Shown here in pieces: positions 2,867 to 60,710 of a stretch of DNA of 64,000 bases. Source of the stretch: Klebsiella phage KMI11; the sequence record MN101225.1; one strand, given 5' to 3'. A program made the translations under genes and the position numbers. How positions within the stretch are numbered: position 1 is the first letter of the stretch; every line of letters starts with the position of its first letter. A model generated the notes under the pieces. The model was not told the origin of the DNA. It made no database searches and saw nothing but the letters and a program-made list of their open reading frames with translations.

Positions 2867-3874
2867 ATGTTTGCAAAATATTCTAGTCTCGAGAACCACT
2901 ACAACAATAAGTTCATCGAGAAGATTCGTGGTGCTGGTTTTGATATGCACACTGTTGAGTGGGTAGCTCGTGAGAAGATTCATGGCACTAACTTTAGTGT
3001 GATTATTACTCCTACCGAAATCGTTCCGGCTAAGCGTACTGGACCTATTTTAGAAAGTGAAAGTTTCTTTGGTCATGATATTATCATGAAGAAGTATAAG
3101 GATTCTTTCGTTAAGATGCAGAACATGCTGAACGCCATGGATTTAGTATCTGTTCAAATCTTCGGCGAATTTGCTGGCGGTGGTATTCAGAAAGGCGTAG
3201 ATTATGGTGAGAAAGATTTCTACGTATTTGATATCTTGTCGGATTCCGGTAACGAAAAAGTTTATTGGGACGATTATGTAGTAGAATCGTTTGCTACTGG
3301 TCTTGGTCTTAAATTGGCTCCACTGCTTGGTCGTGGTTCATTCGCTGAGCTATCTCAGTACGTAAATGACTTTAAATCTATTGTCAATTACTACAATGAA
3401 CTTGTTGACACGACTGACCTTGAACATGCAAATAAACATGTGTTCGGTCCACAGGCTTCTTCTGAAACTGGCGTAGCTGAAGGCTATGTTCTTAAGCCGG
3501 TTCATCCTAAGTTCTTCAATAATGGTACTCGTGTTGCTATTAAGTGTAAGAACTCTAAGTTCAGTGAGAAGGCTAAATCCGATAAGCCTATTAAAGCGAA
3601 GGTTGAACTCACCGAGAATGATAAGCGTGTTCTGGAAATCTTTTCTGAATATGTAACCTGGAACCGTGTAAGTAACGTTCTGTCTCATATTGGTACTGTA
3701 ACTGCTAAAGATTTCGGTCGTGTTATGGGTCTGACTATGAAAGATATCATTAACGAAGCAGCACGTGAAGGTCATGACATGCTATTCGCTGATAATCCTT
3801 CTGCTGTTAAGAAAGAAATCACTACTTTAATTCAAAACACTATTCGTAGTAAATGGCATGAGGTTTTAGAATAA
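2867..3874 (+). CDS. rnlB: RNA ligase 2 (Rnl2)
   Basis: Near-collinear with T4 Rnl2: MF(A/K)KYSSLENHYN, REKIHGTNFS lysine-adenylation motif, RVAIKCKNSKFSEK(A/K)KSDKPIKAKVEL. Length 335 aa versus 334 in T4. Confidence 0.9.
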   Translation: MFAKYSSLENHYNNKFIEKIRGAGFDMHTVEWVAREKIHGTNFSVIITPTEIVPAKRTGPILESESFFGHDIIMKKYKDSFVKMQNMLNAMDLVSVQIFGEFAGGGIQKGVDYGEKDFYVFDILSDSGNEKVYWDDYVVESFATGLGLKLAPLLGRGSFAELSQYVNDFKSIVNYYNELVDTTDLEHANKHVFGPQASSETGVAEGYVLKPVHPKFFNNGTRVAIKCKNSKFSEKAKSDKPIKAKVELTENDKRVLEIFSEYVTWNRVSNVLSHIGTVTAKDFGRVMGLTMKDIINEAAREGHDMLFADNPSAVKKEITTLIQNTIRSKWHEVLE

Positions 3875-8889: not shown

Positions 8890-9314
8890 TAACTTAGCCC
8901 CAGAGCCTGACGGCGTTTAAGTGCTTTCTTACGTTTACGTAATCCACGAGTTTGAGCCGATGGATTAGCACGTTTTGATTTTACTGCTTTACGCGCGATT
9001 TGACGGCGTTTAGCTTTAGAAAGTCCAGTTGTTTGGAACGCGTTACGCTCACGTGTTTTACGATCCTTAGTACGTGTAATAGTACCTTTAGAATCAACAT
9101 GTTTAACGATAAATTCATTTAGTTGTAGAGATTCATTGATTGAACCTAAAGCAATTGCTAAATCAGGCTCAGAAACAACAAGATTCTCTACAATTTTATT
9201 TATATCATCTTTAGAGAGCGCTGCGGACAACTTATCAAAACGTGCCTGGGCTTCAGGAAGAAGAGCTTCGACAGTGTCGATAACTAATTCATGATTTTCA
9301 GGCAGTATAAGCAT
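8889..9314 (-). CDS. 68: prohead core protein gp68
   Basis: 141 aa, the same length as T4 gp68, with a basic C-terminus. Confidence 0.7.
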
Positions 9315-9538
9315 TACTCGTCCTCTTCGTCGTCTTCGTCTTTATCAGACTTATCTTCGTCTTCGTCGTCTTCATCTTCGTCCTCATCGGGCTCTTCACC
9401 CTCAATCATGACAGACGCTGCGATAATTTTTTTGCGCTCTTCAATTAAACCAGATGTCCGTTCAGCCATAATTGCACCAAAAGCTTTTTTGGCTGCTACG
9501 AGGTCTCTGGATTCAATTGCGGAAATATAATTTTCCAT
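9314..9538 (-). CDS. 67: prohead core protein gp67
   Basis: 74 aa with a poly-acidic C-terminal tail ([12 protein letters not shown]...), as in T4 gp67. Confidence 0.7.
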
Positions 9539-11106
9539 TAGAAATCCTCTTCATTTTCTTGGTCTTGGAAGCGAGCCTCTTTAGACTCTAATTCAATTTG
9601 CTTGGCTTCTTGTTCAATTTCTTCATCTGACATCTGAAGGAAATCTTTCATTGCTGTCTTATGAGAAATATACTTGCCGATAAACTGTTCAGCCATTGTG
9701 AGCATATTGATTCTACGCTCCATAACTTCAGCATCTTTCAACTCGGTGAAATATGAATCTTTATGGAACACAATCTTAATATTATTTATTTCGTCTTCCC
9801 ACTCATCTTTAGACAAAACTTTTTTAAGAATTAGATTAGTGCGAAGTGGATCAAGCATAATCTCTTCAAATTTATGCTGTAATCTACGAATAAATTTGGC
9901 AAAATCAAGTTCATCACGTGTGATTGATGTACCAGCATCAAACTGCACACCACCTTGATTATTTGCATCTGGCATGCGCGAAAGAGGAACTCGCAATGCC
10001 ATGTATAACGCTGTTCTAAAGTAACGGACGTCATCCATATCACTCATACCGGACATACCAGGAAGAGTATCTACTTCAGTAACTGCTTTACCATCTCTAC
10101 GCTGCAACCAATAGTCTTCTGTCATTGACATATTATGTTGCTGATTTTTAATCTTACCGGTTGATGCATCATATACAACGCGATTTTTCATCGTGTTCAT
10201 AATATGTTGCATATGAGCTGCCGCTTTACGAGAAGGCATATTACCAGTGTCAATGTAAAACACACGACGGTCAGGAGCACGAGTAATACGATAAATTACC
10301 AACGCATCTTCTAATAGCTTTAACTGGTTGGCGGGTTTAACGGCTCGGTGTAAATAACCGATGATGTTTTGACCTGAACAATCAACTAGTCCAGAATGTG
10401 CATATACGATAGCATCGCGTGGAATTTTAATTTTCGTTCCGGCGGAATATAATCTGCCATCTGCGTAATAACTTTCTTTGCCAGTATCGTAAATGAAATA
10501 CTCTTTGTACCCCTTAACGATTTTAGTACCAGCGTCATCAGCGGTAACGATTTCACGGATGAATTGTAAGTTGCGCGGGTCAAGACGTCTCAGTTCCTGA
10601 ATTCCGTCTTTCATTTTCTTTGTGTTGACGATTTTATGGAAGAATATTCTTGAGTCAACATACCAACGGCGGAAATGGTCGGCTCCTTTTCGCTCGAAAT
10701 TAAGGCATGTTAAAACTATATTAAATTCTTCAAGAATGCGGTCTTTAATTGCTTGACTGAAGTCGGTAGAATCTAAATCAAGAGAAACTACTGGATGACC
10801 GTCTTCGTATACAACTGCGTCAGAAACTATTTCTTCAACAGCATTGTCAACTTCGTAGTTATTCATTAAACTACGATAAGTGTTGATTAAATCAGCAGTT
10901 GTTTTCATTCCAGGTTCATTGGAACCAAACATCATTTGGTTGAATGAATTGTACTGGATTTCGTTTTCGTTTGATTCAACTTCACGAGCTCCATCATCAA
11001 ATTTTGGAGCAGTGATTGACTCTAGGTCATTGTTGATTTGTTGCTTATATTCAGCTTCGTCGCGTTTTTCCCACGGAGCGAATAAGTCCAAAATATGAAA
11101 GGCCAT
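9538..11106 (-). CDS. 20: portal vertex protein gp20
   Basis: 522 aa (T4 gp20 is 524). Position matches the order 19, 20, 67, 68, 21. Confidence 0.9.
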
Positions 11107-11133
11107 TGGAGTCTCCGAAATTATCTATAAGTA

Positions 11134-11141
11134 TATTTATA
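11134..11141 (-). promoter_or_regulatory. late promoter TATAAATA for gene 20
   Basis: TATTTATA on the plus strand, about 30 nt upstream of the 20 start. Confidence 0.55.
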
Positions 11142-11210
11142 TCGAAGTTTTGTCAGATATTTAAGCAAATAACTCACAGAACTTCGATACGGGGCCGAAG
11201 CCCCATAGCA

Positions 11211-22595: not shown

Positions 22596-24419
22596 TTAAC
22601 CTACCCTAATCCAACGATAAACGGTGATTGTTGGCTGAATTTTAGTGATGTCATTTGGAACTACACCATTGTTTACTGCAACAGTGTCTTCACGGTATTT
22701 AGAATAACCTGGACCTTGTGCATCTGGGTCTAATTGACATCCGCCAATAACTACGCTGCCATGTTCAGGGTCTGAAATTAGAACTTTGTCCCTTGACATT
22801 AACTCAGGAATGTGTTCTTTTCCTAATGTAAATGTCAAATCACCAACTGTTCCACCTGCTGTTAACGATGGTTGCCCGTTTTCGTTTAGGTTATTATTGT
22901 TACGCGCAAAATAAGGGTCAGATGAATCATTATTCCAACCCGCAGTAACACGACCCTGAGAGTAAAGCTTCCATACACCAAATCCCATGTAATCGGCAGG
23001 GTTTGCATGGTTATGAGCGTTTTCATAAATCGTACCAATCGGATAAATTACGTCAAAGAATGCTGCAATGTTATTGACTTTAATCATAACATCATCAGCG
23101 ACAGGACGCATATTTTTCTGATTTGGTTCATCATAGTTAGTGTATTCAATGCGATTTTTTAGAGTTACTAATTGCTCAGCATTCATATACACTTGGTCGG
23201 TTTCTGCCATGATATCATCGATGTTCATAGTAGTACCGATGTTGTTGTTGAACCAACGAACAGTAAGAAGGTCTTTATCCTCGAACGCTTCGCCAAAAAT
23301 AATAGCTTCTACGTTAATACCAGTCGAGTCAAATTCCAGTCTGTAATCTTGGTTAGAATTTACCCATTGACCACCGTTGTTTATACAGTCTTCTGCATAT
23401 CCGCCTTCCGCGCCTTCACAATAAAATAAAGGAAGACCTGCAGTTCCAGCTTCGAGTAATTCCTTTCCGTTCAATGAAATTTCAAGCGAGTTAGGATTTA
23501 CCCCTACGCCTGGAAGTACACCCATGTCATCCAGAGTGATTCTGCGGAGAGTAGCAAGGTTATCTACTATCATTGACCCAGGAATCGTCTGGGATGCAGT
23601 CTGGGCTGAATCTCGTATCTGGATAGCTAACTTGTTGTATGAAGAACGATATACACCAATTCCATCTAAGAAGGTTTCAAATGTTATCACTTCCCCTTCA
23701 ACACATGGAACTTTTAAACGAATGTCTTTACCGTTTAATTCTACCAATTGACCCGCTACCGTTCCAGGAGAACCGTAATCAGCATTGGCTTTATCCATAA
23801 CGCTGGTTTCACCGTAATATAAAATATTACCACGACGATATACATTAAGCGAGTCTTCGTTATATTCTACGCCATCAAAAATGTTAAGAAAGTCAGTCTG
23901 ACCCGCAGTAGCAATAATTGATTTTTTCGCTACAGTACTTAAGTTACCATTAGTTAGCTTATCTACAGTTTTATTTTCAATATATTCCCAGCGGCCAGGG
24001 GCGCAATAAACCAATTCCAAATCTTGGAAGTTAGTATTGAAAATTTTAGGAGAAGCTGAACCTTTTAATGTATCGCCTTGAGCAGGAATAACTGTGATTG
24101 GGCTTAATCGCCAGGTTGACCAAACATCACGAAGTTTAATAACTTTGTTATAGTCGTTGGCTGTACCCTTTGGAAGCTGAACGTTAACTCTTGCTGCCTG
24201 GGTATTAATAGCAAAGGCCTGACCAAACTTAGCATTTAAAGTAGTTCCAGTAGGGCTAGCTTTAAAAGTTTTCCATGCACCTGCTGCGAATGGAACTGAA
24301 CCATCACCTAACTCTGAATATAAATCATCAAAGTTGTTATTAATTTTAAGACCACCTTTACGGAGGTAATCACCAGACCCATCATCTACTGATTGGCCTA
24401 CTATCAAATTTTGTTTCAT
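22596..24419 (-). CDS. 10: baseplate wedge subunit / tail pin gp10
   Basis: 607 aa (T4 gp10 is 602). Confidence 0.8.
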   Translation of the reverse strand: MKQNLIVGQSVDDGSGDYLRKGGLKINNNFDDLYSELGDGSVPFAAGAWKTFKASPTGTTLNAKFGQAFAINTQAARVNVQLPKGTANDYNKVIKLRDVWSTWRLSPITVIPAQGDTLKGSASPKIFNTNFQDLELVYCAPGRWEYIENKTVDKLTNGNLSTVAKKSIIATAGQTDFLNIFDGVEYNEDSLNVYRRGNILYYGETSVMDKANADYGSPGTVAGQLVELNGKDIRLKVPCVEGEVITFETFLDGIGVYRSSYNKLAIQIRDSAQTASQTIPGSMIVDNLATLRRITLDDMGVLPGVGVNPNSLEISLNGKELLEAGTAGLPLFYCEGAEGGYAEDCINNGGQWVNSNQDYRLEFDSTGINVEAIIFGEAFEDKDLLTVRWFNNNIGTTMNIDDIMAETDQVYMNAEQLVTLKNRIEYTNYDEPNQKNMRPVADDVMIKVNNIAAFFDVIYPIGTIYENAHNHANPADYMGFGVWKLYSQGRVTAGWNNDSSDPYFARNNNNLNENGQPSLTAGGTVGDLTFTLGKEHIPELMSRDKVLISDPEHGSVVIGGCQLDPDAQGPGYSKYREDTVAVNNGVVPNDITKIQPTITVYRWIRVG

Positions 24420-25330
24420 TATTGAGATACCCCTACGGTCTGTGTAGCAATAACTTTAACTGCCAAACGTGCGTTTCCATAAGATGTTGAAGCTGTGCAT
24501 ATTAAATCTTTCTGCGCGTTAATAGAGTATGAAATAGAATACATCTTTTCATTTTCAGATGATTCACCGCTTCTTAACACTGCATATTCAGTGTCAAATA
24601 CTCTTCCGTTTGGCGCTGATGAAGTAATAGTCGGATCAATCATAAGCATAACTTCAGATGATTGCCTTTTGATGGTTTGACCACCCGGATTTGCACTGAA
24701 GCTTAATAACAATTTAACGGTGGAGTAATCATCATTATATCCAATGCGGATATTAATAGGAGAACTTGTTAAATTATATGTAGCTTCTAATGGCGAATAT
24801 GTGCTGCCAAACATACTTGAAATTGAATAATCCCAAACAGCAGCACCGTTAGCTTTTACCTCAACACACCATAGCTCAATTCTGCATCTTGGGGTATTAA
24901 TAACTAACTCTCGCGATCCATCTTTAAATGCATCTGCTACGCCTTCACCATTTGTTGTTATTTTTATGGGTCTAGCTTTTGACGCTGATCCATTACTATT
25001 TACAATGAATACAGCTTCTCCCGCTTTACCCTTTGAAAGACGTATTTGAACTGCACCTTCTGAACAATCTGCGTCTAAACATGCTCCCATTGGAACTGTT
25101 CCTGCAGAGTTAGCATCACCAAATTTTACCTTTTGATAATAGCTTGTTGCATGAATTTTTTGACTTCCTTTTCCAGACCCTGCAGCAAATAACCTTTGAT
25201 CTCCAAATGCGTTATAAATGGCGTCATAGTTTTGATTTATTTTGACGCCGCCAGCATATAAAATGTCGCCCGTAGAAGCATTACCTACTTCACCGACGTC
25301 AATAACCTTTTTACCTTCATCTACATACAT
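24419..25330 (-). CDS. 9: baseplate wedge protein gp9 (long tail fibre connector)
   Basis: 303 aa (T4 gp9 is 288), between 8 and 10. Confidence 0.75.
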   Translation of the reverse strand: MYVDEGKKVIDVGEVGNASTGDILYAGGVKINQNYDAIYNAFGDQRLFAAGSGKGSQKIHATSYYQKVKFGDANSAGTVPMGACLDADCSEGAVQIRLSKGKAGEAVFIVNSNGSASKARPIKITTNGEGVADAFKDGSRELVINTPRCRIELWCVEVKANGAAVWDYSISSMFGSTYSPLEATYNLTSSPINIRIGYNDDYSTVKLLLSFSANPGGQTIKRQSSEVMLMIDPTITSSAPNGRVFDTEYAVLRSGESSENEKMYSISYSINAQKDLICTASTSYGNARLAVKVIATQTVGVSQ

Positions 25331-36566: not shown

Positions 36567-37300
36567 TTGAAGCTTTTATTTTTGATTGGTAAAAAACGCA
36601 GTGGCAAAGACACTACTGCTGATTACATTATGGATAACTACAATGCAACAAAGCATCAGTTAGCGGGTCCAATTAAAGATGCGTTGGCTGATGCAATGCT
36701 TACTGAGTGGTATCGCGATACGTCTCGTGAGTTTCCGCGCATTACTCGGTCAATGATTGAAGGTATTGATTACGATCGTGAGCAGGATTTAAATCTGTCT
36801 ACTAAAGACGTGATTCGTATTATGGCGAATGCTATTGAATATGTCCATCATGATTTGCCTTTACCTGGGGTGGTTTATGATAGCAAGCGTAAAATTCTTG
36901 ACGGCGATACGATGGAAGTCATCCGTCAAGTTGTAATAAATAAACCTGTTGAGCCATGGTCAATTCGTCGTCTCATGCAGACCCTTGGGACTGACATTGT
37001 CTGTGATAAGCTCGATCGCATGTATTGGGTAAAACGATTTACTTTGGTTATGGCTGATACTTTTGGTGATTATGATTATTTCATTGTCCCAGATACTCGT
37101 CAAGACCATGAACTTGATGTAGCCAGGGCGATGGGTGCTACAGTTATTCATGTAGTTCGTCCTGAGCAAGAAGGTTCTAAAAAAGATACTCACGTCACAG
37201 AGCGTGGACTTCCGATTCGCGAAGGCGATATCGTAATAACTAACGACGGTTCTCTAGAAGAACTTTATTCAAAAATCAACACTATATTAGGAATTCAAAA

Positions 37301-37304
<4 letters not shown>
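36567..37304 (+). CDS. 1: dNMP kinase gp1
   Basis: P-loop GKKRSGKDTTAD and VPDTRQDHE..ARAMGATVIHVVRP are near-identical to T4 gp1. Confidence 0.9.
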
Positions 37305-37992
<688 letters not shown>

Positions 37993-39047: not shown

Positions 39048-39134
39048 GGGGAGTTAGACCGTAGGGGTAGCGGGACAGACTGTAAATCTGTTGCTCAAAA
39101 GGCTCGAGTGGTTCGACTCCATTACTCCCCACCA
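39048..39134 (+). tRNA. tRNA-Tyr (anticodon GUA), type II with a long variable arm
   Basis: Hand-folded cloverleaf: 7-bp acceptor GGGGAGT/ACTCCCC, anticodon loop CUGUAAA, long variable arm, T-arm GGTTCGACTCC, 3' ACCA. Confidence 0.75.
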
Positions 39135-39140
39135 AATTTA

Positions 39141-39217
39141 GGGATACTAGCTCAGTTGGTTAGAGCACCGGACTTTTAATCCGGGTGTCCGAAGTTCGAG
39201 TCTTCGGTGTCCCACCA
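39141..39217 (+). tRNA. tRNA-Lys (UUU)
   Basis: Canonical cloverleaf with anticodon loop CUUUUAA and T-loop TTCGAGT, ending CCA. Confidence 0.8.
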
Positions 39218-39222
39218 AATTC

Positions 39223-39307
39223 GGGTCGTTGGCTGAGAGGGTAAGCGACGGACTGTTAATCCGTGTCAGAAATGACTAGGCAGGTTCGATACCTGCACGG
39301 CCCGCCA
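39223..39307 (+). tRNA. type-II (long variable arm) tRNA with anticodon GUU (Asn codons); identity uncertain
   Basis: Acceptor GGGTCGT/ACGGCCC, anticodon stem ACGGA/TCCGT, loop CUGUUAA, 15-nt variable hairpin, T-arm GCAGGTTCGATACCTGC, ending CCA. Confidence 0.55.
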
Positions 39308-39429
39308 AATGAAGAAGTCAGAAGACGTTCTGATAAAATCGTCGGCACAGAAATCCCTGGCATGGCGTTTGTATTAAGGAGTATGATTTCATCCTGCTTA
39401 ATGCTTGTTCATGTTATAATTTCTTACGG

Positions 39430-39550
39430 CGTTGAAAGTTCGCTTTCAGGGATACATCTTAGAGCAGAGTGTTAAACAAGATTCATCTGGTACCAAGGTG
39501 ATGAGAGCCCTGTTCCCCTTTGCTTCGGCATCGTGCCAGAGTATCTCTGA
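39430..39550 (+). ncRNA. candidate structured small RNA between tRNAs (analogous to the T4 RNA C / RNA D slot)
   Basis: Local hairpin TGAAAG-TTCG-CTTTCA. Long-range complementarity between 39436-39458 (GAAAGTTCGCTTTCAGGGATAC) and 39527-39546 (GTATCTCTGAAAGCGAA). No plausible ORF. Confidence 0.35.
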
Positions 39551-39561
39551 AAGCGAATTAT

Positions 39562-39638
39562 GGACCTATAGTTTAGTTGGTTAAAATACTCCCCTGTCAC
39601 GGGAGAGAGCACGGGTTCGATCCCCGTTAGGTCCGCCA
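39562..39638 (+). tRNA. tRNA-Asp (GUC)
   Basis: Acceptor GGACCTA/TAGGTCC, anticodon loop CUGUCAC, T-loop TTCGATC, ending CCA. Confidence 0.8.
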
Positions 39639-39800
39639 AATAAGAACGTGGCAGTTCTTGAAGATGAGTTTGAGTCCTATAAGATAATGCCGAGGACGAA
39701 GCTGTTTGTTCCCACGGAATAAGCTCTATATTCGTAAGATTATATCTTTAGCGTGTTCTACATCAAGCTACTTGTTAGTACTTCAAGAACCCGGATAAAT

Positions 39801-39876
39801 GCGGAGTAACTTCAGTTGGTAGAATGTTGGGCTCATATCCCGACACGCGCAGGTTCGAGTCCTGCCTCCGCCTCCA
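39801..39876 (+). tRNA. tRNA-Met (CAU) or Ile-lysidine type
   Basis: D-arm TTCAGTTGGTAGAA, anticodon loop CUCAUAU, T-arm GCAGGTTCGAGTCCTGC. The acceptor pairing is imperfect at the base, so the 3' end is uncertain. Confidence 0.6.
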
Positions 39877-39881
39877 ACAAT

Positions 39882-39956
39882 TGGACTATAGACAAGCGGT
39901 TAAGTCACCGGCCTTTGACTCCGGTATCTCTGGTTCGAATCCAGATAGTCCAGCCA
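39882..39956 (+). tRNA. tRNA-Gln (UUG) with a U1-A72 pair
   Basis: Acceptor TGGACTA/TAGTCCA, anticodon loop CUUUGAC, T-loop TTCGAAT, GCCA end. A 5' U is what I recall for T4 tRNA-Gln. Confidence 0.75.
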
Positions 39957-40052
39957 AATTAATATTCATTCAACGCGTCTACAGGGGTTGAACTGATCAT
40001 TCTTCTCTTAATTTCGTATGAAGTCCTCATGATGGATGGAGTGAATATTGAT

Positions 40053-40128
40053 GTGGCCGTAGTTCAGTTGGTAGAACTCAGCATTGTGATTGCTGTCGTC
40101 GACGGTTCAAATCCGTCCGGTCACCCCA
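40053..40128 (+). tRNA. tRNA-His (GUG)
   Basis: Anticodon stem CAGCA/TGCTG, loop UUGUGAU, T-arm GACGGTTCAAATCCGTC, ending CCA. Confidence 0.75.
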
Positions 40129-40224
40129 ACAATGAAGGAATGGTGGAAAAATACACGGCCCGCAAAACGCTGTGGCTGTCGCTAAGCGAATTGTGTCTAT
40201 ATGACACTTCCTTCACCAAATACT

Positions 40225-40309
40225 GGAGAGTAGCGCTAGTGGTAGCAAACCGGACTTGAAATCCGGGCCATCGGAAACGGTGAGGGTTCAACTCCTTTAC
40301 TCTCCGCCA
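40225..40309 (+). tRNA. tRNA-Ser (UGA), type II
   Basis: Acceptor GGAGAGT/ACTCTCC, anticodon loop CUUGAAA, long variable arm, T-loop TTCAACT, GCCA. Confidence 0.8.
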
Positions 40310-40375
40310 AATTTATGAAAGTTAAACGCTGCCCATAGCAGTGGTACATCAACAATTAGATGATTAGCTTTCCAT

Positions 40376-40451
40376 GGGAGTATAGCTCATTTGGTAGAGC
40401 TCTCGACCGATAATCGAGCGGTGACTGGTTCGAGTCCAGTTACTCCCACCA
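40376..40451 (+). tRNA. tRNA-Ile (GAU)
   Basis: Acceptor GGGAGTA/TACTCCC, anticodon loop CCGAUAA, T-loop TTCGAGT, ACCA. Confidence 0.8.
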
Positions 40452-40457
40452 AATAAC

Positions 40458-40532
40458 AGGTTCTTAGTATAACGGCTATTATGCTGGGCTCCAAACCCAG
40501 TGATGAGGGTTCGATTCCTTCAGGGCCTGCCA
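40458..40532 (+). tRNA. tRNA-Trp (CCA)
   Basis: Acceptor AGGTTCT/AGGGCCT, anticodon stem CTGGG/CCCAG, loop CUCCAAA, T-loop TTCGATT, GCCA. Confidence 0.7.
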
Positions 40533-40537
40533 AATTT

Positions 40538-40612
40538 GCATCCATCGTATAACGGCTATTATAGGTGACTTCCACTCACTTGATAAGGGTTCGATTCCCT
40601 TTGGATGCTCCA
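40538..40612 (+). tRNA. tRNA-Gly (UCC)
   Basis: Acceptor GCATCCA/TGGATGC, anticodon loop CUUCCAC, T-loop TTCGATT, TCCA. Confidence 0.8.
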
Positions 40613-40617
40613 AATTA

Positions 40618-40694
40618 CTCCGTATAGCTCAGTCTGGTAGAGCGTTCCATTTGGGATGGAAAGGTCGAATGTTCGAGTCATTCTATGGAGACCA
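40618..40694 (+). tRNA. tRNA-Pro (UGG)
   Basis: Acceptor CTCCGTA/TATGGAG, anticodon stem TTCCA/TGGAA, loop UUUGGGA, T-arm GAATGTTCGAGTCATTC, ACCA. Confidence 0.8.
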
Positions 40695-40700
40695 AATTAA

Positions 40701-40844
40701 CGGTATGACACAATACAAGATGGCGTAAGCTGAGTAGCGGGATTGCAGTCTCGTTCAGATATGCTATCGAGTATGGGTGATATATTAAACACATGGATTC
40801 TGCAAAGTCCATGTGACTCGGTTCGAGGCCGGGCATACCGTCCA
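40701..40844 (+). ncRNA. tRNA-like stable RNA of ~144 nt: acceptor stem plus T-arm plus CCA, with an internal insertion of ~70 nt
   Basis: 5' CGGTATG pairs perfectly with 3' CATACCG, followed by T and CCA. T-arm CTCGG-TTCGAGG-CCGGG. Internal hairpin CATGGA-N10-TCCATG. There is no standard D or anticodon arm. Confidence 0.45.
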
Positions 40845-41018
40845 ATCACTTGCCATTGAGAAATATATTATGAAATATTACGGCTTCAAAACATCCCATT
40901 TCGGGAAAGCATATCGTACAGAAAACATTGATAGACGTCGAGCATATTACGAATCACTGCATAAAGCAGGACGTTCTCGTGCACGACAAGAAGGCCAAAA
41001 ACAAGCGAAGGAAATAGA

Positions 41019-41384
41019 ATGAATATTTTTATTGGTGTTGCAAATAACGTAAATGCTATTACGGTGAAATTACAATGGAATCGTCCAACTAATTTTGCTT
41101 TAGGATTATGTAAATCTGAACGTGATTTAATGCTTCATGCTGATTTTGCATACACTTTTGATGAACGCAAAGGTATGTGGGTCTGGATTAAATGCAGATA
41201 CGAAGCATTAATCAAATATGAGTACTTCAGTGAGCGTGATATTCAAGAAGTTATTGCTTATCATTCTGGCTGTAAAGTAAGTAAACTGCGTCAAGTTATT
41301 CCGTTTACTAATGCTTCAAATGTAGAAGAGCTAATTACTGATTTTAAACGAATTTATCAGGCGAAATATGATGAAAGATTCTAA
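41019..41384 (+). CDS. hypothetical protein
   Basis: 121-aa ORF, ATGA-coupled to its neighbours. Confidence 0.45.
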   Translation: MNIFIGVANNVNAITVKLQWNRPTNFALGLCKSERDLMLHADFAYTFDERKGMWVWIKCRYEALIKYEYFSERDIQEVIAYHSGCKVSKLRQVIPFTNASNVEELITDFKRIYQAKYDERF

Positions 41385-41958: not shown

Positions 41959-42035
41959 GGCCCTGTAGCTCAATTGGTAGAGCGTTCCCCTCATAAGGGA
42001 TTGGTTGCATGTTCGAGTCTTTGCCAGGGTCACCA
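41959..42035 (+). tRNA. tRNA-Met-like (CAU) with a degenerate T-stem; possibly an elongator Met/Ile2 tRNA or a pseudo-tRNA
   Basis: Acceptor GGCCCTG/CAGGGTC, D-arm GCTCAATTGGTAGAGC, anticodon loop CUCAUAA, T-loop TTCGAGT. The T-stem pairs poorly. Confidence 0.45.
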
Positions 42036-42265: not shown

Positions 42266-42823
42266 ATGCATATTAAATTTGGACAAGTTATTCCTAAAGG
42301 CTTAGCAATGGCAATTACCACTTGGGAAAACGATGCTGATCGGTATTCTACCCAAATGGTTTATGGCTTAGAAAAAGAAGAGATTAATCAAGTAATTCAC
42401 GTTCTTGAATGGTTCTCTTCTAATGGTCGGCGTGGTGAATACCTTGGAAATAATGATTACAACCATGAAGCAATTCTTGAAAAGCTTCATACTGAACAGA
42501 AGTATGTAACTCCTGAATTTTCCAAGAAATTCTTTGGCGTTGATGTTCCTGCATATGATTGTTCAGACGAAGAGTTTGATGCTTATTTAGATAACCACTA
42601 TTCTTGTTCAAATGAAGTTATGTATGCTATTCAGGCTTGGTTGGGTAATCCAATTGAATATGATTATGATTTCATGCGAGTATTTGAGAAAGTTGAAATC
42701 TTTGATATTAAAGAAGAAATTCGTATTCCTGATGCTCCGGTTGCATTCCATATTGGAATTACGTATAAGCAGAAAGAAAGCCCATTAAAAGTTGATTGGT
42801 TGAAATACGTGAAGGAAAAGTAA
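42266..42823 (+). CDS. hypothetical protein
   Basis: 185-aa ORF with a GAGGAAATTGAAATG RBS. Confidence 0.5.
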   Translation: MHIKFGQVIPKGLAMAITTWENDADRYSTQMVYGLEKEEINQVIHVLEWFSSNGRRGEYLGNNDYNHEAILEKLHTEQKYVTPEFSKKFFGVDVPAYDCSDEEFDAYLDNHYSCSNEVMYAIQAWLGNPIEYDYDFMRVFEKVEIFDIKEEIRIPDAPVAFHIGITYKQKESPLKVDWLKYVKEK

Positions 42824-43273
42824 ATGGATATTGGTTCAGGTAGTTCATATCCATCATGTGCTTTGAGCAACTTTGCTCCTCATAAATTTATCTATGATGG
42901 CGTAGAATGTGCATCAATGGAGGGATTCTTGCAGTCCCTCAAATTTTCTTCGCCTGAAATGCAAGCACATGTATGTACATTAGTTGGTAAATCGGCTAAG
43001 TTCAAAGGTAAAAAGAAACGGTGGTGGCCAACTCAAACACTTTATTGGAAAGGCGTGCCAATCCATCGTGCTTCAGAAGCGTATCAGAATTTACTGACAG
43101 GAGCATACGATGCACTTAGTAAAAATGAAGGATTCAGAAAAGCTTTGGCTGCTACCCGGAATGCTACGCTCACTCACAGTATGGGCAAAAACAAAATTTC
43201 TGAAACGATTTTGACTGAACGCGAATTCTGTAATCAACTTTATCGTTTGAGAAATGCTATAAATAATCAGTAA
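42824..43273 (+). CDS. NADAR (YbiA-like) domain protein; predicted ADP-ribose N-glycosidase
   Basis: ALSNFAPHKFIYDGVECASMEGFLQSLKF and GFRKALAATRNATLTH follow the YbiA/NADAR pattern (LSNF...F..G..F.S.E..FQ..KF). ATGA overlap with the upstream ORF. Confidence 0.6.
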   Translation: MDIGSGSSYPSCALSNFAPHKFIYDGVECASMEGFLQSLKFSSPEMQAHVCTLVGKSAKFKGKKKRWWPTQTLYWKGVPIHRASEAYQNLLTGAYDALSKNEGFRKALAATRNATLTHSMGKNKISETILTEREFCNQLYRLRNAINNQ

Positions 43274-43284
43274 TATAATTATCT

Positions 43285-43412
43285 TGTTCAGTGTTGAAAT
43301 CGGTAGACATGGTGACGGACACCTTTTGAGCTCGCATATTGCATCATATGCTGGCGACGGTGGTAAATCGCTGACGGAATCAGTCGTGCAGGTTCGAGTC
43401 CTGCCTGAACAA
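43285..43412 (+). ncRNA. tRNA-like stable RNA of ~128 nt (tRNA 3' half plus an insertion); resembles T4 species 1/2 RNAs or a degenerate tRNA
   Basis: 5' TGTTCAG pairs with 3' CTGAACA. Perfect T-arm GCAGG-TTCGAGT-CCTGC. D-loop-like AAATCGGTAGA. No canonical anticodon arm and no encoded CCA. It abuts tRNA-Arg. Confidence 0.4.
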
Positions 43413-43415
43413 TCT

Positions 43416-43492
43416 CGGGGCATAGCTCAGTTGGATAGAGCAGCGGACTTCTAATCCGCAGGTCGAAGGTTCGAATCCTTCTGCCTCGACCA
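43416..43492 (+). tRNA. tRNA-Arg (UCU)
   Basis: Acceptor CGGGGCA/TGCCTCG, D-arm GCTCAGTTGGATAGAGC, anticodon loop CUUCUAA, T-loop TTCGAAT, ACCA. Confidence 0.8.
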
Positions 43493-43496
43493 TTTC

Positions 43497-43581
43497 GCAT
43501 CGATGGTGGAACTGGTATACACAGGAGACTTAAAATCTCCCGCCGCAAGGATTGAGGGTTCGAATCCCTCTCGGTGCACCA
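43497..43581 (+). tRNA. tRNA-Leu (UAA), type II
   Basis: Acceptor GCATCGA/TCGGTGC, anticodon stem GGAGA/TCTCC, loop CUUAAAA, long variable arm, T-arm GAGGGTTCGAATCCCTC, ACCA. Confidence 0.8.
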
Positions 43582-43583
43582 AA

Positions 43584-43681
43584 TTAAGACCCCGGGAATA
43601 GTTGCTTAAACTTAGTGAGGAATTCAACGGCAGATACGTCTGTGCAACTACATAAGGTTCGAATCCTTATTTCCGTCTTAA
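43584..43681 (+). ncRNA. tRNA-like element of ~98 nt between tRNA-Leu and tRNA-Thr (pseudo-tRNA or stable RNA)
   Basis: 5' TTAAGAC pairs with 3' GTCTTAA. T-arm ATAAGG-TTCGAAT-CCTTAT. Internal hairpin CAGA-TACG-TCTG. It does not fold as a standard cloverleaf. Confidence 0.35.
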
Positions 43682-43757
43682 GCCGATTTAGCTCAGCTGG
43701 TAGAGCGCTTCACTTGTAATGAAGATGTCGCGGGTTCGACTCCTGCAATCGGCACCA
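43682..43757 (+). tRNA. tRNA-Thr (UGU)
   Basis: Acceptor GCCGATT/AATCGGC, anticodon loop CUUGUAA, T-loop TTCGACT, ACCA. Confidence 0.8.
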
Positions 43758-54852: not shown

Positions 54853-55452
54853 ATGGCACAGCTTTATTTCAACTACGCGAGCATGAATGCAGGCAAATCG
54901 GCTAATCTTCTTACCGCGGCGCATAATTACAAAGAACGAGGAATGGGAACTCTCATTCTTAAACCTGCTATTGATACTCGTGATTCTGCCACCGAGGTAA
55001 CATCACGTATTGGTCTTCGTCATGAAGCTAATACAGTAGACGAATCTATTGATATCCTTGAGTTTTTCAAGTGGGCACAAACACAACGTGATATTCATTG
55101 TGTGTTCGTTGATGAAGCCCAATTTTTAACTACTGAGCATGTTGTTCAGCTGTGTAAGATTGTTGACCTGTATGATGTTCCGGTAATGGCATATGGTCTT
55201 CGCACTGATTTTCGCGGAGAGTTATTCGAAGGTTCTAAAGCACTGTTGGCTGTTGCTGATAAACTGGTCGAGCTTAAGGGGGTTTGCCATTGCGGCCGTA
55301 AAGCTACTATGGTTGCTCGTATTGATGAAAACGGAAATGCTATTACCGATGGTGAAGTAGTAGAACTTGGTGGTGAAGATAAGTATGTTTCTCTTTGCCG
55401 TAAGCATTGGTTTGAACTAATTGGTGTTTATAATGAAGCCAAGAACGTATAA
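54853..55452 (+). CDS. tk: thymidine kinase
   Basis: P-loop MNAGKSANLL, FVDEAQF, and a C-terminal zinc ribbon CHCGRKA...LCRKH. Confidence 0.9.
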   Translation: MAQLYFNYASMNAGKSANLLTAAHNYKERGMGTLILKPAIDTRDSATEVTSRIGLRHEANTVDESIDILEFFKWAQTQRDIHCVFVDEAQFLTTEHVVQLCKIVDLYDVPVMAYGLRTDFRGELFEGSKALLAVADKLVELKGVCHCGRKATMVARIDENGNAITDGEVVELGGEDKYVSLCRKHWFELIGVYNEAKNV

Positions 55453-59299: not shown

Positions 59300-59703
59300 C
59301 TACTAAGAAAAAACTTAGTATGAGCATTGTGAAACAGATGCCATTAGCTTCAGCCGAAAACATTAAATTCGCAATGATGGACCCGGAATCACGGGTACTA
59401 GGATATATCAATGCATTTCGCTGGAACAGACTTGACATTCAGGTGGCAATCATTAGCACAGGAATTGATTGGGCATTAGTTCCTATGTATGAAACAACAT
59501 TACGCGAAGAAACCTGTCGTGAGCAGCATCCTGATGGACAAGAGTATCATACTCATGAGGTAGTGTATTATTACACCAGTCAAAAAATTGGTAATGTTTA
59601 TCGTACATCAAAAAGAACTACAGATAAAACTCGAGCAGAAGAAGCCGCCAAGCGTTCTAATGCATTAGTTAAATTCGCTAAAGGGAATCATATTTACTTA
59701 TGA
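59281..59703 (+). CDS. hypothetical protein
   Basis: 140-aa ORF. Confidence 0.4.
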   Translation: MEIELVTTKKKLSMSIVKQMPLASAENIKFAMMDPESRVLGYINAFRWNRLDIQVAIISTGIDWALVPMYETTLREETCREQHPDGQEYHTHEVVYYYTSQKIGNVYRTSKRTTDKTRAEEAAKRSNALVKFAKGNHIYL

Positions 59704-60710
59704 AAACAATCGTAAAATCTTATTTTGGTTCACATCTGTATGGTACTTCAACTCCCGAGTCAGATGTGGATTTTAAAGAAATCTTTGTACCTCATCCGCG
59801 TGATATTCTGTTGTGTCAAGCGATGAATCATACTAATCGTAATACTAATAACAGCGCAACCAAAAATACGAAAGACGACGTCGACCATGAGCTGTTCAGC
59901 TTAAAGTATTTCTTCAAGCTCGCTGCTGACGGTGAAACTGTCGCGTTGGATATGCTGCATACTCCACCGGAATTGGTAGTTGCATCTGACCTTCCTGAAG
60001 TATGGAAATTCATTCAAGACAACCGAGCTCGTTTCTATACTACTGACATGAAGGCTTATCTTGGATATGTCCGTAAGCAAGCAGGTAAGTATGGCGTTAA
60101 GGGTTCTCGTTTAGCCGATTTACATAAAGTCCTGGATGTTATCAGAGATGTTCCTGAATGGAAATATGACGATCGTCCTCAGCAGAAGGGTATCAATGAG
60201 CGTTGGAAAGTACAGGATATCGCAGAGAAACTTCCTCTCGGTGAATTCCTCGAATGGACCACCTTCGTTGACCACAAATCAGGCGAGCAGAAGTTTTATA
60301 ACGTTCTGGGTCGTAAATTCCAGACGACTATCACTATCAAAGAGATGAAGTATTCTCTTGAGAAACTTGATGCTGAATATGGTGAACGTGCTCGTAAGGC
60401 AGAAGCTAACGAAGGCGTTGACTGGAAAGCACTGAGTCATGCTCTTCGTGCAGGTCTGCAGCTTCAGGAAATCTATATGACTGGTGACCTTCAATTCCCT
60501 CTGACCCATGCTAAAATGGTCAAGATGGTCAAAGCAGGTGAGTTACCGTTCAAAGAAGTACAGGAGCTTCTCGAGTCTGTAGTAGATGAAGTAGAAATTC
60601 TAGCTCATACTGCTGAAAAGAACGGAATGCCTAAGAAAGTAGACATGAAGTTCTGGGACGATTTCGTCGAGAAGGTTTATCTTGAAAACCACAATTCTTA
60701 CTACAAATGA
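59700..60710 (+). CDS. Pol-beta superfamily nucleotidyltransferase (cGAS/DncV-like GS..G..SDVD active-site motif)
   Basis: N-terminal GSHLYGTSTPESDVDF is a textbook h-G-S-x(n)-D-h-D NTase motif. A candidate third acidic residue sits in VALDML. The C-terminal half is alpha-helical, about 200 aa. Confidence 0.55.
   Translation: MKTIVKSYFGSHLYGTSTPESDVDFKEIFVPHPRDILLCQAMNHTNRNTNNSATKNTKDDVDHELFSLKYFFKLAADGETVALDMLHTPPELVVASDLPEVWKFIQDNRARFYTTDMKAYLGYVRKQAGKYGVKGSRLADLHKVLDVIRDVPEWKYDDRPQQKGINERWKVQDIAEKLPLGEFLEWTTFVDHKSGEQKFYNVLGRKFQTTITIKEMKYSLEKLDAEYGERARKAEANEGVDWKALSHALRAGLQLQEIYMTGDLQFPLTHAKMVKMVKAGELPFKEVQELLESVVDEVEILAHTAEKNGMPKKVDMKFWDDFVEKVYLENHNSYYK

Follow-up and report, generated by a model that had tools for sequence, protein, structure and literature searches.

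A predicted phage NADAR protein of the gp30.3/AdfN type in the tRNA region of Klebsiella phage KMI11

The question raised by this locus is whether a small gene lying among the tRNA genes of a Klebsiella phage protects phage DNA from ADP-ribosylation and, if so, from which host toxin. The window analysed is a 64,000 nucleotide (nt) stretch of Klebsiella phage KMI11 (MN101225.1), and the gene encodes a 149 amino acid (aa) protein, referred to here as the NADAR protein. A first-pass annotation had placed a 149-aa open reading frame (ORF) between two groups of tRNA genes, and open reading frame analysis together with ARAGORN reproduced that placement exactly (Table 1). It had also proposed that the product is a NADAR enzyme countering DarTG defence, by implication DarTG2. 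Published work on the family points to a different target. The gene is likely the Jiaodavirus ortholog of T4 gp30.3/AdfN, with the same ADP-ribosylated guanine (G-ADPr) substrate and the same role against DarTG1. Klebsiella phage KPV15 (Straboviridae, Tevenvirinae, Jiaodavirus; JD18-like) matches the surrounding region at 99.5% identity, and the window shows synteny with T4 along the segment gene 1 - 57B - tRNA region - e.6 - nudE - e - regB - vs.1 - tk.4 - tk.

Family assignment and catalytic residues

The NADAR protein has a single match in Pfam, PF08010 (Phage_30_3, 'Bacteriophage protein GP30.3'). The match is strong (E 4.6e-56, 188.9 bits against a gathering cutoff of 36), with residues 9-143 covering profile positions 2-137 of 138. 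T4 gp30.3 (NC_000866) aligns with the protein over its full length at 41% identity (E 1e-34). Homologs of the gene form ~4,600 clusters at 90% identity and 1,114 clusters at 50% identity, and all of the homologs listed carry PF08010. The PHROG family of the protein, phrog_652, is annotated as function unknown.

Placing the protein in the NADAR superfamily required structure prediction and profile-profile comparison by hhalign, because searches relying on sequence found either nothing or a marginal match to YbiA. A phmmer search of PDB sequences with the protein returned nothing at E≤10, and a profile of close homologs gave no relevant match to the same sequences. An AlphaFold2 model built from 36 homologs was of good confidence (pLDDT 88.3, pTM 0.84). 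The predicted structure has the alpha-helical core flanked by small beta-hairpins that is looked for in a NADAR fold, and the top three Foldseek matches in PDB were YbiA (2b3w), a Phytophthora NADAR with ADP-ribose (8bau) and a Geobacter lovleyi NADAR (8bat). Hhalign aligned the family profile with E. coli YbiA over 131 columns (probability 94.2%, E 1.1e-7). In this alignment LSNF is paired with FSNF of YbiA, and S-M-E-G-F-L-Q-S-L-K-F is paired with T-S-E-H-Y-F-Q-A-Q-K-F.

The same alignments identify the catalytic residues. E33 and K40 align with E36 and K43 of T4 AdfN and with the corresponding Glu and Lys in SEHYFQAQKF of YbiA, on the helix through which NADARs contact ADP-ribose, and both are conserved in at least 90% of 61 diverse homologs. 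The residue found in the last strand separates the NADAR subfamilies, with Glu marking the YbiA family, Asp the NADARs associated with DarT1 and His those of phages (PMC11543638); the His-type phage subfamily is defined in the same way in PMC11125620 and PMC12945103. The NADAR protein has a His at this position, H118, which is invariant in the alignment of 36 close homologs and reaches at least 90% conservation across the 61 diverse ones. E33, K40 and H118 are all kept in the orthologs of the eight genera that were aligned. The C-terminal helix, which full activity in this family requires, is predicted to be intact. The protein consists of the core alone, as the alignment with T4 begins at residue 1 and there is no N-terminal extension.

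The fold, the catalytic residues and the profile-profile homology make membership in the NADAR superfamily solid, and they bear out the first-pass proposal of a NADAR-superfamily enzyme. The signature on which that proposal was based was described less accurately. All of its anchor residues are present, but the spacing quoted for them was wrong, and a regular expression with that spacing fails on the protein and on the portion of YbiA shown by hhalign. The actual motif is LSNF-x4-F-x3-G-x4-S-x-E-x-F-x-Q-x2-KF, followed by RKALAAT-x2-AT. The protein has no Pfam match to a Macro domain, and no macrodomain structure was among the fold matches shown. All computationally tested features of the phage NADAR/AdfN family are present in the protein, and the defining features of the YbiA, DarG1 and macrodomain families are absent.

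The 149-aa ORF is a real gene under strong purifying selection. Comparison with the Karamvirus ortholog gave a pN (nonsynonymous) of 0.09 and a pS (synonymous) of 0.74, with dN/dS ~0.03. Copies of the protein that are at least 99% identical occur in 133 deposited phages. Matches to the gene in deposited phages were found in 1,512 places in 1,509 records, indicating that it is a single-copy gene.

Some metagenomic proteins depart from this simple architecture. Among P0128, P0194, P0163, P0160 and P0178, PF08010 domains occur in tandem, with two matched stretches per protein, or are apparently fused to BspA-type leucine-rich repeat, Lgt and FtsW/RodA-like regions. The 'phage' NADAR family may therefore include cellular or multidomain members; alternatively, these proteins may be gene-call run-ons. 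A 290-aa metagenomic protein, P0121, was considered as a fusion of gp30.3 with a 30.2-like HAD domain that would hint at a cofactor for AdfN. It was rejected because similarity between the C-terminal half and T4 30.2 is absent (E 5.2).

Predicted substrate and role

DarT1 ADP-ribosylates the amino group of guanine, and NADAR antitoxins undo the modification (Schuller et al. 2023, PMC11543638). Phage NADARs were termed 'gp30.3 proteins' in a study in which the T4 enzyme hydrolysed G-ADPr and not ADP-ribosylated thymidine (T-ADPr) in vitro (Toxins 2024, PMC11125620). T4 30.3 was then renamed adfN, for anti-DarT factor NADAR (Johannesman et al. 2025, PMC11825919). In that work T4 and T2 lacking adfN failed to plaque on DarTG1 hosts, and purified AdfN-T4 stripped ADP-ribose from DarT1-modified DNA. 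The E36A and K43A substitutions impaired counter-defence by T4 AdfN, and E36A abolished ADP-ribose removal in vitro. Ectopic AdfN-T4 rescued RB69, whose own allele is frameshifted, lacks the C-terminal helix and is defective. Independently, transposon sequencing by HIDEN-SEQ showed 30.3/adfN to behave as a conditionally essential gene, needed only in the presence of DarTG1 (bioRxiv 10.1101/2025.11.20.689424). Phage NADARs are now classified as one of four NADAR families (Toxins 2026, PMC12945103). The anti-DarTG1 mechanism and role of the gp30.3 family are thus already known from work published in 2023-2025, and the Klebsiella phage gene opens no new question. The anti-DarTG idea put forward in the first-pass annotation had itself been published in 2024-2025.

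By analogy with T4, the same substrate and role would apply to the 41% identical ortholog in Klebsiella. The NADAR protein would be made early in infection from a transcript of the tRNA region. A host DarT1-type toxin would move ADP-ribose from NAD+ to the N2 amino group of guanine in replicating phage DNA. The enzyme would bind ADP-ribosyl-guanine through the helix bearing Glu33 and Lys40 together with His118 of the last strand, and would hydrolyse the ribose-guanine bond so that unmodified DNA is restored. Phage replication could then resume, and abortive infection of the DarTG1 type would fail. Every deposited Klebsiella phage record that was inspected labels the gene 'hypothetical protein'. 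The deposited genomes of Klebsiella Jiaodavirus include over 130 that encode a protein at least 99% identical, which could be re-annotated as an AdfN-type anti-DarTG1 NADAR.

Several results weigh against an AdfN-type enzyme acting on DarT1-modified DNA. Identity to the characterized T4 enzyme is only 41%, and none of the relatives studied by experiment is more than 60% identical. Literature searches for DarTG1 or DarT1-type toxins in Klebsiella gave nothing specific, so some other guanine ADP-ribosyltransferase may be what the enzyme counters in nature. Full activity of AdfN-T4 is confined to T-even infections and seems to depend on a factor specific to these phages (PMC11825919). A summary table credits all four NADAR families with removal of G-ADPr, RNA included, so DNA is perhaps not the sole substrate; removal of the C modification (C-ADPr) is listed only for the NADAR and YbiA-type families (PMC12945103). 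At the level of family assignment, the protein has no match to PF08719 (NADAR) at E≤1, and a relative, P0171, scored 16.7 bits against a cutoff of 35.1. The YbiA equivalog model TIGR02464 (NCBIfam) gave 14.7 bits, below its threshold of 73.7. The profile of 61 diverse sequences matched only YbiA among PDB sequences, at a marginal E of 0.021, which is a weak link through sequence. A significant match to PF08719 had been proposed as the test of the first-pass call, and its absence as grounds for refutation. Taken literally, that criterion would wrongly reject a correct superfamily assignment. The PF08719 and TIGR02464 results do not refute NADAR membership, since fold, catalytic residues and profile-profile homology all point to it and the phage branch has a separate curated family of its own, PF08010.

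A further possibility considered is that the main substrates of the NADAR protein are RNA or soluble derivatives of ADP-ribose, and not DNA. It might act on tRNA or mRNA guanosines that a host toxin has modified, on immune signals derived from ADP-ribose, or on by-products of tRNA repair. This possibility was suggested by Iyer et al. 2022. The in vitro activity of all four families, T4's included, on G-ADPr in RNA speaks for it, as does the ADP-ribosylation of tRNA guanosines by pierisin-type ADP-ribosyltransferases (PMC12945103). The gene also stands amid tRNA genes, with which it is probably co-transcribed. However, adjacency to tRNA genes is limited to Jiaodavirus and Karamvirus, and Slopekvirus and Pseudotevenvirus homologs that are 76-78% identical adjoin the ligase gene. 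Since these close homologs lie beside DNA ligase, like that of T4, the position of the gene is unlikely to reflect its substrate. We know of no physiological defence system based on G-ADPr in RNA. The family has a single known phenotype in vivo, which is directed at DNA and depends on DarTG1 (PMC11825919; bioRxiv 10.1101/2025.11.20.689424). We regard a role centred on RNA or soluble ADP-ribose as unlikely.

A metabolic role is less likely still. An N-glycosidase of the YbiA type would act in housekeeping on reactive intermediates of the riboflavin pathway, and the fold is shared with YbiA. The low TIGR02464 score and the replacement of the last-strand Glu by His118 speak against such an activity, there are no riboflavin genes among the neighbouring ORFs scanned, and the phenotype of the T4 ortholog is specific to defence. 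We consider this reading very improbable. Equally doubtful is the proposal that the gene is an inactive or decaying copy left behind after relocation, like the truncated RB69 allele. The gene is absent from its usual slot, and RB69 shows defective alleles to persist in nature (PMC11825919). The reading frame is nevertheless full-length, the C-terminal helix is intact and all catalytic positions are conserved. The low pN relative to pS and the 133 nearly identical copies are likewise at odds with decay.

Action against DarTG2 is the least probable reading, since the thymidine mark of DarT2 is reversed by macrodomains such as that of DarG (PMC11543638), none of the NADARs tested in vitro reverses T-ADPr (PMC11125620), three phage AdfNs, that of T4 among them, failed to rescue phage on DarTG2 hosts and T4 lacking both adfA and adfN stays resistant to DarTG2 (PMC11825919), and T4 uses for this purpose the macrodomain protein AdfM, encoded by tk.4 (bioRxiv 10.1101/2025.11.20.689424), of which the window has its own ortholog. 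The first-pass annotation was therefore right in kind in proposing a counter to DNA ADP-ribosylation, an activity proven for the T4 ortholog against DarTG1, and wrong in assigning guanine to DarT2 (PMC11543638) and the protein to DarTG2. The plaque assay it proposed on DarTG2 hosts would give a false negative, since phage NADARs do not counter DarTG2.

Genomic position and neighbouring genes

T4 has 30.3 flanked by 30.4 and 30.2, upstream of DNA ligase. Such a position is typical of gp30.3 without strictly defining it, and in the window the gene instead stands between tRNA-Met and tRNA-Arg. The ligase regions of KPV15 and T4 were compared. KPV15 keeps homologs of 30.9, 30.7, 30.6, 30.5, 30.2, 30.1 and 30 but has no 30.3. 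A 69-aa ORF stands where 30.4/30.3 would be expected, and the order 30.5, 30.2, 30.1, ligase is kept. The sole NADAR copy of the phage is the one in the tRNA cluster. KPV15 and T4 are 43% identical in 30.2, 41% in 30.1 and 37% in 30.5, in line with 41% for the NADAR protein.

Homologs in other genera occupy several positions. They have the ligase-proximal position in Slopekvirus 05F (78% identical), Pseudotevenvirus Margaery (76%) and Hadassahvirus Melin (42%). In Karamvirus Pet-CM3-4 an 88% identical homolog lies in the tRNA cluster, one short ORF ahead of tRNA-Arg. The NADAR gene of Aeromonas Tulanevirus is near nrdB, and a Rhizobium phage of the Pootjesviridae has a 58% identical copy. Because homologs that are 76-78% identical adjoin ligase, the tRNA-cluster location looks like simple gene shuffling. 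The first-pass annotation had taken the non-T4 slot as a sign of accessory acquisition. The gene is indeed off the ligase slot, but it is a homolog of T4 30.3 that is single-copy in ~1,500 phages, and relocation is the reading we adopt instead. The Jiaodavirus/Karamvirus arrangement is better described as a relocation, or a replacement, that is particular to this lineage and concerns an accessory gene both mobile and widely conserved. The changed position shows how a counter-defence gene moves around within T4-like genomes. It is decidedly unlikely that this branch moved the gene into the tRNA operon because the enzyme acquired, or had from the start, an RNA-protecting role. In that reading, one possibility is that ADP-ribose is removed from guanosines of phage or host tRNA modified by a host RNA-targeting ADP-ribosyltransferase. 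In a weaker variant, the diverged branch would work without the T-even-specific cofactor of AdfN-T4.

A small ORF that follows directly on tRNA-Pro shares 75% identity with the ORF directly upstream of the Slopekvirus 05F NADAR gene. The match is a hint that shuffling between the ligase and tRNA regions involved further genes besides that of the NADAR protein.

Table 1. Coordinates of the NADAR gene, its predicted elements and other features of the window, with excerpts of related genomes used for comparison
Feature	Position	Strand	Remarks
NADAR-type coding sequence, 149 codons plus stop	42824..43273	+	ATG start; predicted guanine-ADP-ribose DNA glycohydrolase, gp30.3/AdfN-type phage NADAR
Shine-Dalgarno-like GAAGGA	42811..42816	+	7 nt before the NADAR-gene ATG, inside the end of the upstream ORF; read from sequence
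Predicted catalytic Glu/Lys helix, codons E33-K40 (E-G-F-L-Q-S-L-K)	42920..42943	+	Pairwise alignment, hhalign
H118 codon, phage-NADAR marker residue in last strand	43175..43177	+	Aligns with T4 H123
Predicted C-terminal alpha-helix, residues 132-148	43217..43267	+	DSSP on the model; intact; alignment extends to the end of T4 gp30.3
Upstream ORF, 185 aa, function unknown	42266..42823	+	PHROG match phrog_2290
Stop codon (TAA) of upstream ORF	42821-42823	+	
12-tRNA cluster	39048-40694		ARAGORN; upstream of the NADAR gene
tRNA with CAT anticodon, first	39800-39876	+	
Small ORF just after tRNA-Pro	40813-41022	+	Slopekvirus 05F counterpart at excerpt 3265-3417
tRNA-Met (CAT), second CAT tRNA	41959..42035	+	ARAGORN; nearest tRNA upstream of the NADAR gene
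56-aa ORF with TTG start	43284-43454	+	Overlaps tRNA-Arg 43416-43492; real Acb1 ~5.5 kb upstream; counterpart in Klebsiella phages Roth19/Roth20 (excerpt 3151-3321)
tRNA-Arg (TCT)	43416..43492	+	ARAGORN; 142 nt past the NADAR-gene stop codon
tRNA-Arg/Leu/Thr group	43416-43757		ARAGORN; downstream of the NADAR gene
dNMP kinase (deoxynucleoside monophosphate kinase)	36567-37304		Adjoins Acb1
Acb1 (anti-CBASS), T4 57B ortholog	37537-37992	+	PF23474
T4 tk.4 ortholog, 155 aa	54194-54661	+	Directly upstream of thymidine kinase
Thymidine kinase	54853-55452		
336-aa ORF with RlaP domain	59700-60710	+	RNA repair pathway DNA polymerase beta family
KPV15 ligase region	23363-24826 (excerpt)		Compared with T4
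T4 ligase region	9206-11159 (excerpt)		Compared with KPV15

The ATG of the NADAR gene is immediately 3' of the TAA stop of the upstream ORF. Because stop and start abut, the two genes are probably co-transcribed, and the arrangement suggests possible translational coupling. The upstream ORF had tblastn matches in 569 phage records. The match in RB32 covers two annotated features, one of them named 'tRNA.2', at ~69 kb; T4's own shorter trna.2 had no match to the ORF at 1e-3. The ORF is homologous to the 'tRNA.2' ORF of RB32-type phages and is, accordingly, native to the tRNA region. Promoter-like sites were not enriched around the NADAR gene. A terminator-like hairpin within its coding sequence (42920-42940) was discarded, as the regional count of such hairpins is at chance (3 found vs 2.3 expected).

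ARAGORN predicted 16 tRNA genes in the window. Two of these have a CAT anticodon, one of which may be an initiator tRNA or a lysidine-modified tRNA-Ile instead of an elongator tRNA-Met.

The likelier anti-DarTG2 candidate in the window is not the NADAR gene but the tk.4/AdfM ortholog upstream of thymidine kinase. Its product is 46% identical to T4 tk.4 (E 7e-47) and has weak matches to the Macro domain and to DarG. The window also encodes Acb1, which was identified by PF23474 (E 1.8e-61) and is 80% identical to T4 57B. Three published counter-defence genes are therefore combined in the window, as orthologs of Acb1, AdfN and AdfM. In Klebsiella phage therapy, Acb1 together with the AdfN and AdfM orthologs should broaden host range against strains with the corresponding defences. 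The label 'anti-CBASS protein acb1' found near the NADAR region of Roth19/Roth20 belongs to the 56-aa ORF that overlaps tRNA-Arg and is a probable mis-annotation.

The 336-aa ORF with the RlaP domain (E 4e-14) is a further accessory gene of the nucleic-acid-repair type in this early region. The equivalent region of T4, matched by location, has the annotated nucleotidyltransferase nrdC.11.

Comparison with known NADAR proteins

The NADAR protein was compared with four characterized groups. DarG1, the antitoxin of DarT1-NADAR/DarTG1 systems (e.g. G. lovleyi NADAR, PDB 8BAT), has an N-terminal extension and an Asp in the last strand, whereas the phage protein has no extension and a His. Similarity to DarG1 was undetected in a hidden Markov model search of PDB sequences. 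There is no ADP-ribosyltransferase or DarT match in Pfam among the flanking ORFs scanned, nor in PADLOC for the upstream ORF, that would indicate a DarT1 toxin beside the gene; its neighbours are tRNAs and small phage ORFs.

E. coli YbiA (PF08719/TIGR02464; PDB 2B3W), an N-glycosidase of riboflavin intermediates, differs from the phage protein in its family Glu, where the phage protein has His, and in a WGxG segment after the last strand that the phage protein lacks. The biological context differs as well.

AdfN-Bas32 (Markadamsvirinae) and AdfN-Bas60 (Vequintavirinae) are, like the NADAR protein, orphan NADARs of phages, and they neutralise DarTG1 and not DarTG2. They were acquired independently, cluster with archaeal or other bacterial NADARs and need no other phage factors (PMC11825919). 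Both rescue uninfected E. coli from DarT1, which AdfN-T4 does not. Unlike them, the NADAR protein belongs to the gp30.3 clade.

The closest known system is T4 gp30.3/AdfN. The Klebsiella phage gene differs from it in sequence (41% identity), in host (Klebsiella rather than E. coli) and in position (immediately ahead of tRNA-Arg in the tRNA cluster, and not between 30.4 and 30.2 upstream of ligase). Its product groups in a sub-branch with 58-88% identity that is common to Karamvirus, Slopekvirus, Pseudotevenvirus and Aeromonas, Vibrio and Rhizobium phages. The two proteins share the PF08010 domain (188.9 bits in the Klebsiella phage protein), a similar length (149 vs 152 aa), a predicted core-only fold without an N-terminal extension, the Glu/Lys helix, the subfamily His and an intact C-terminal helix. 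Each is encoded by a single-copy gene of a Tevenvirinae genome, and the gene shares its strand with the early-region genes around it.

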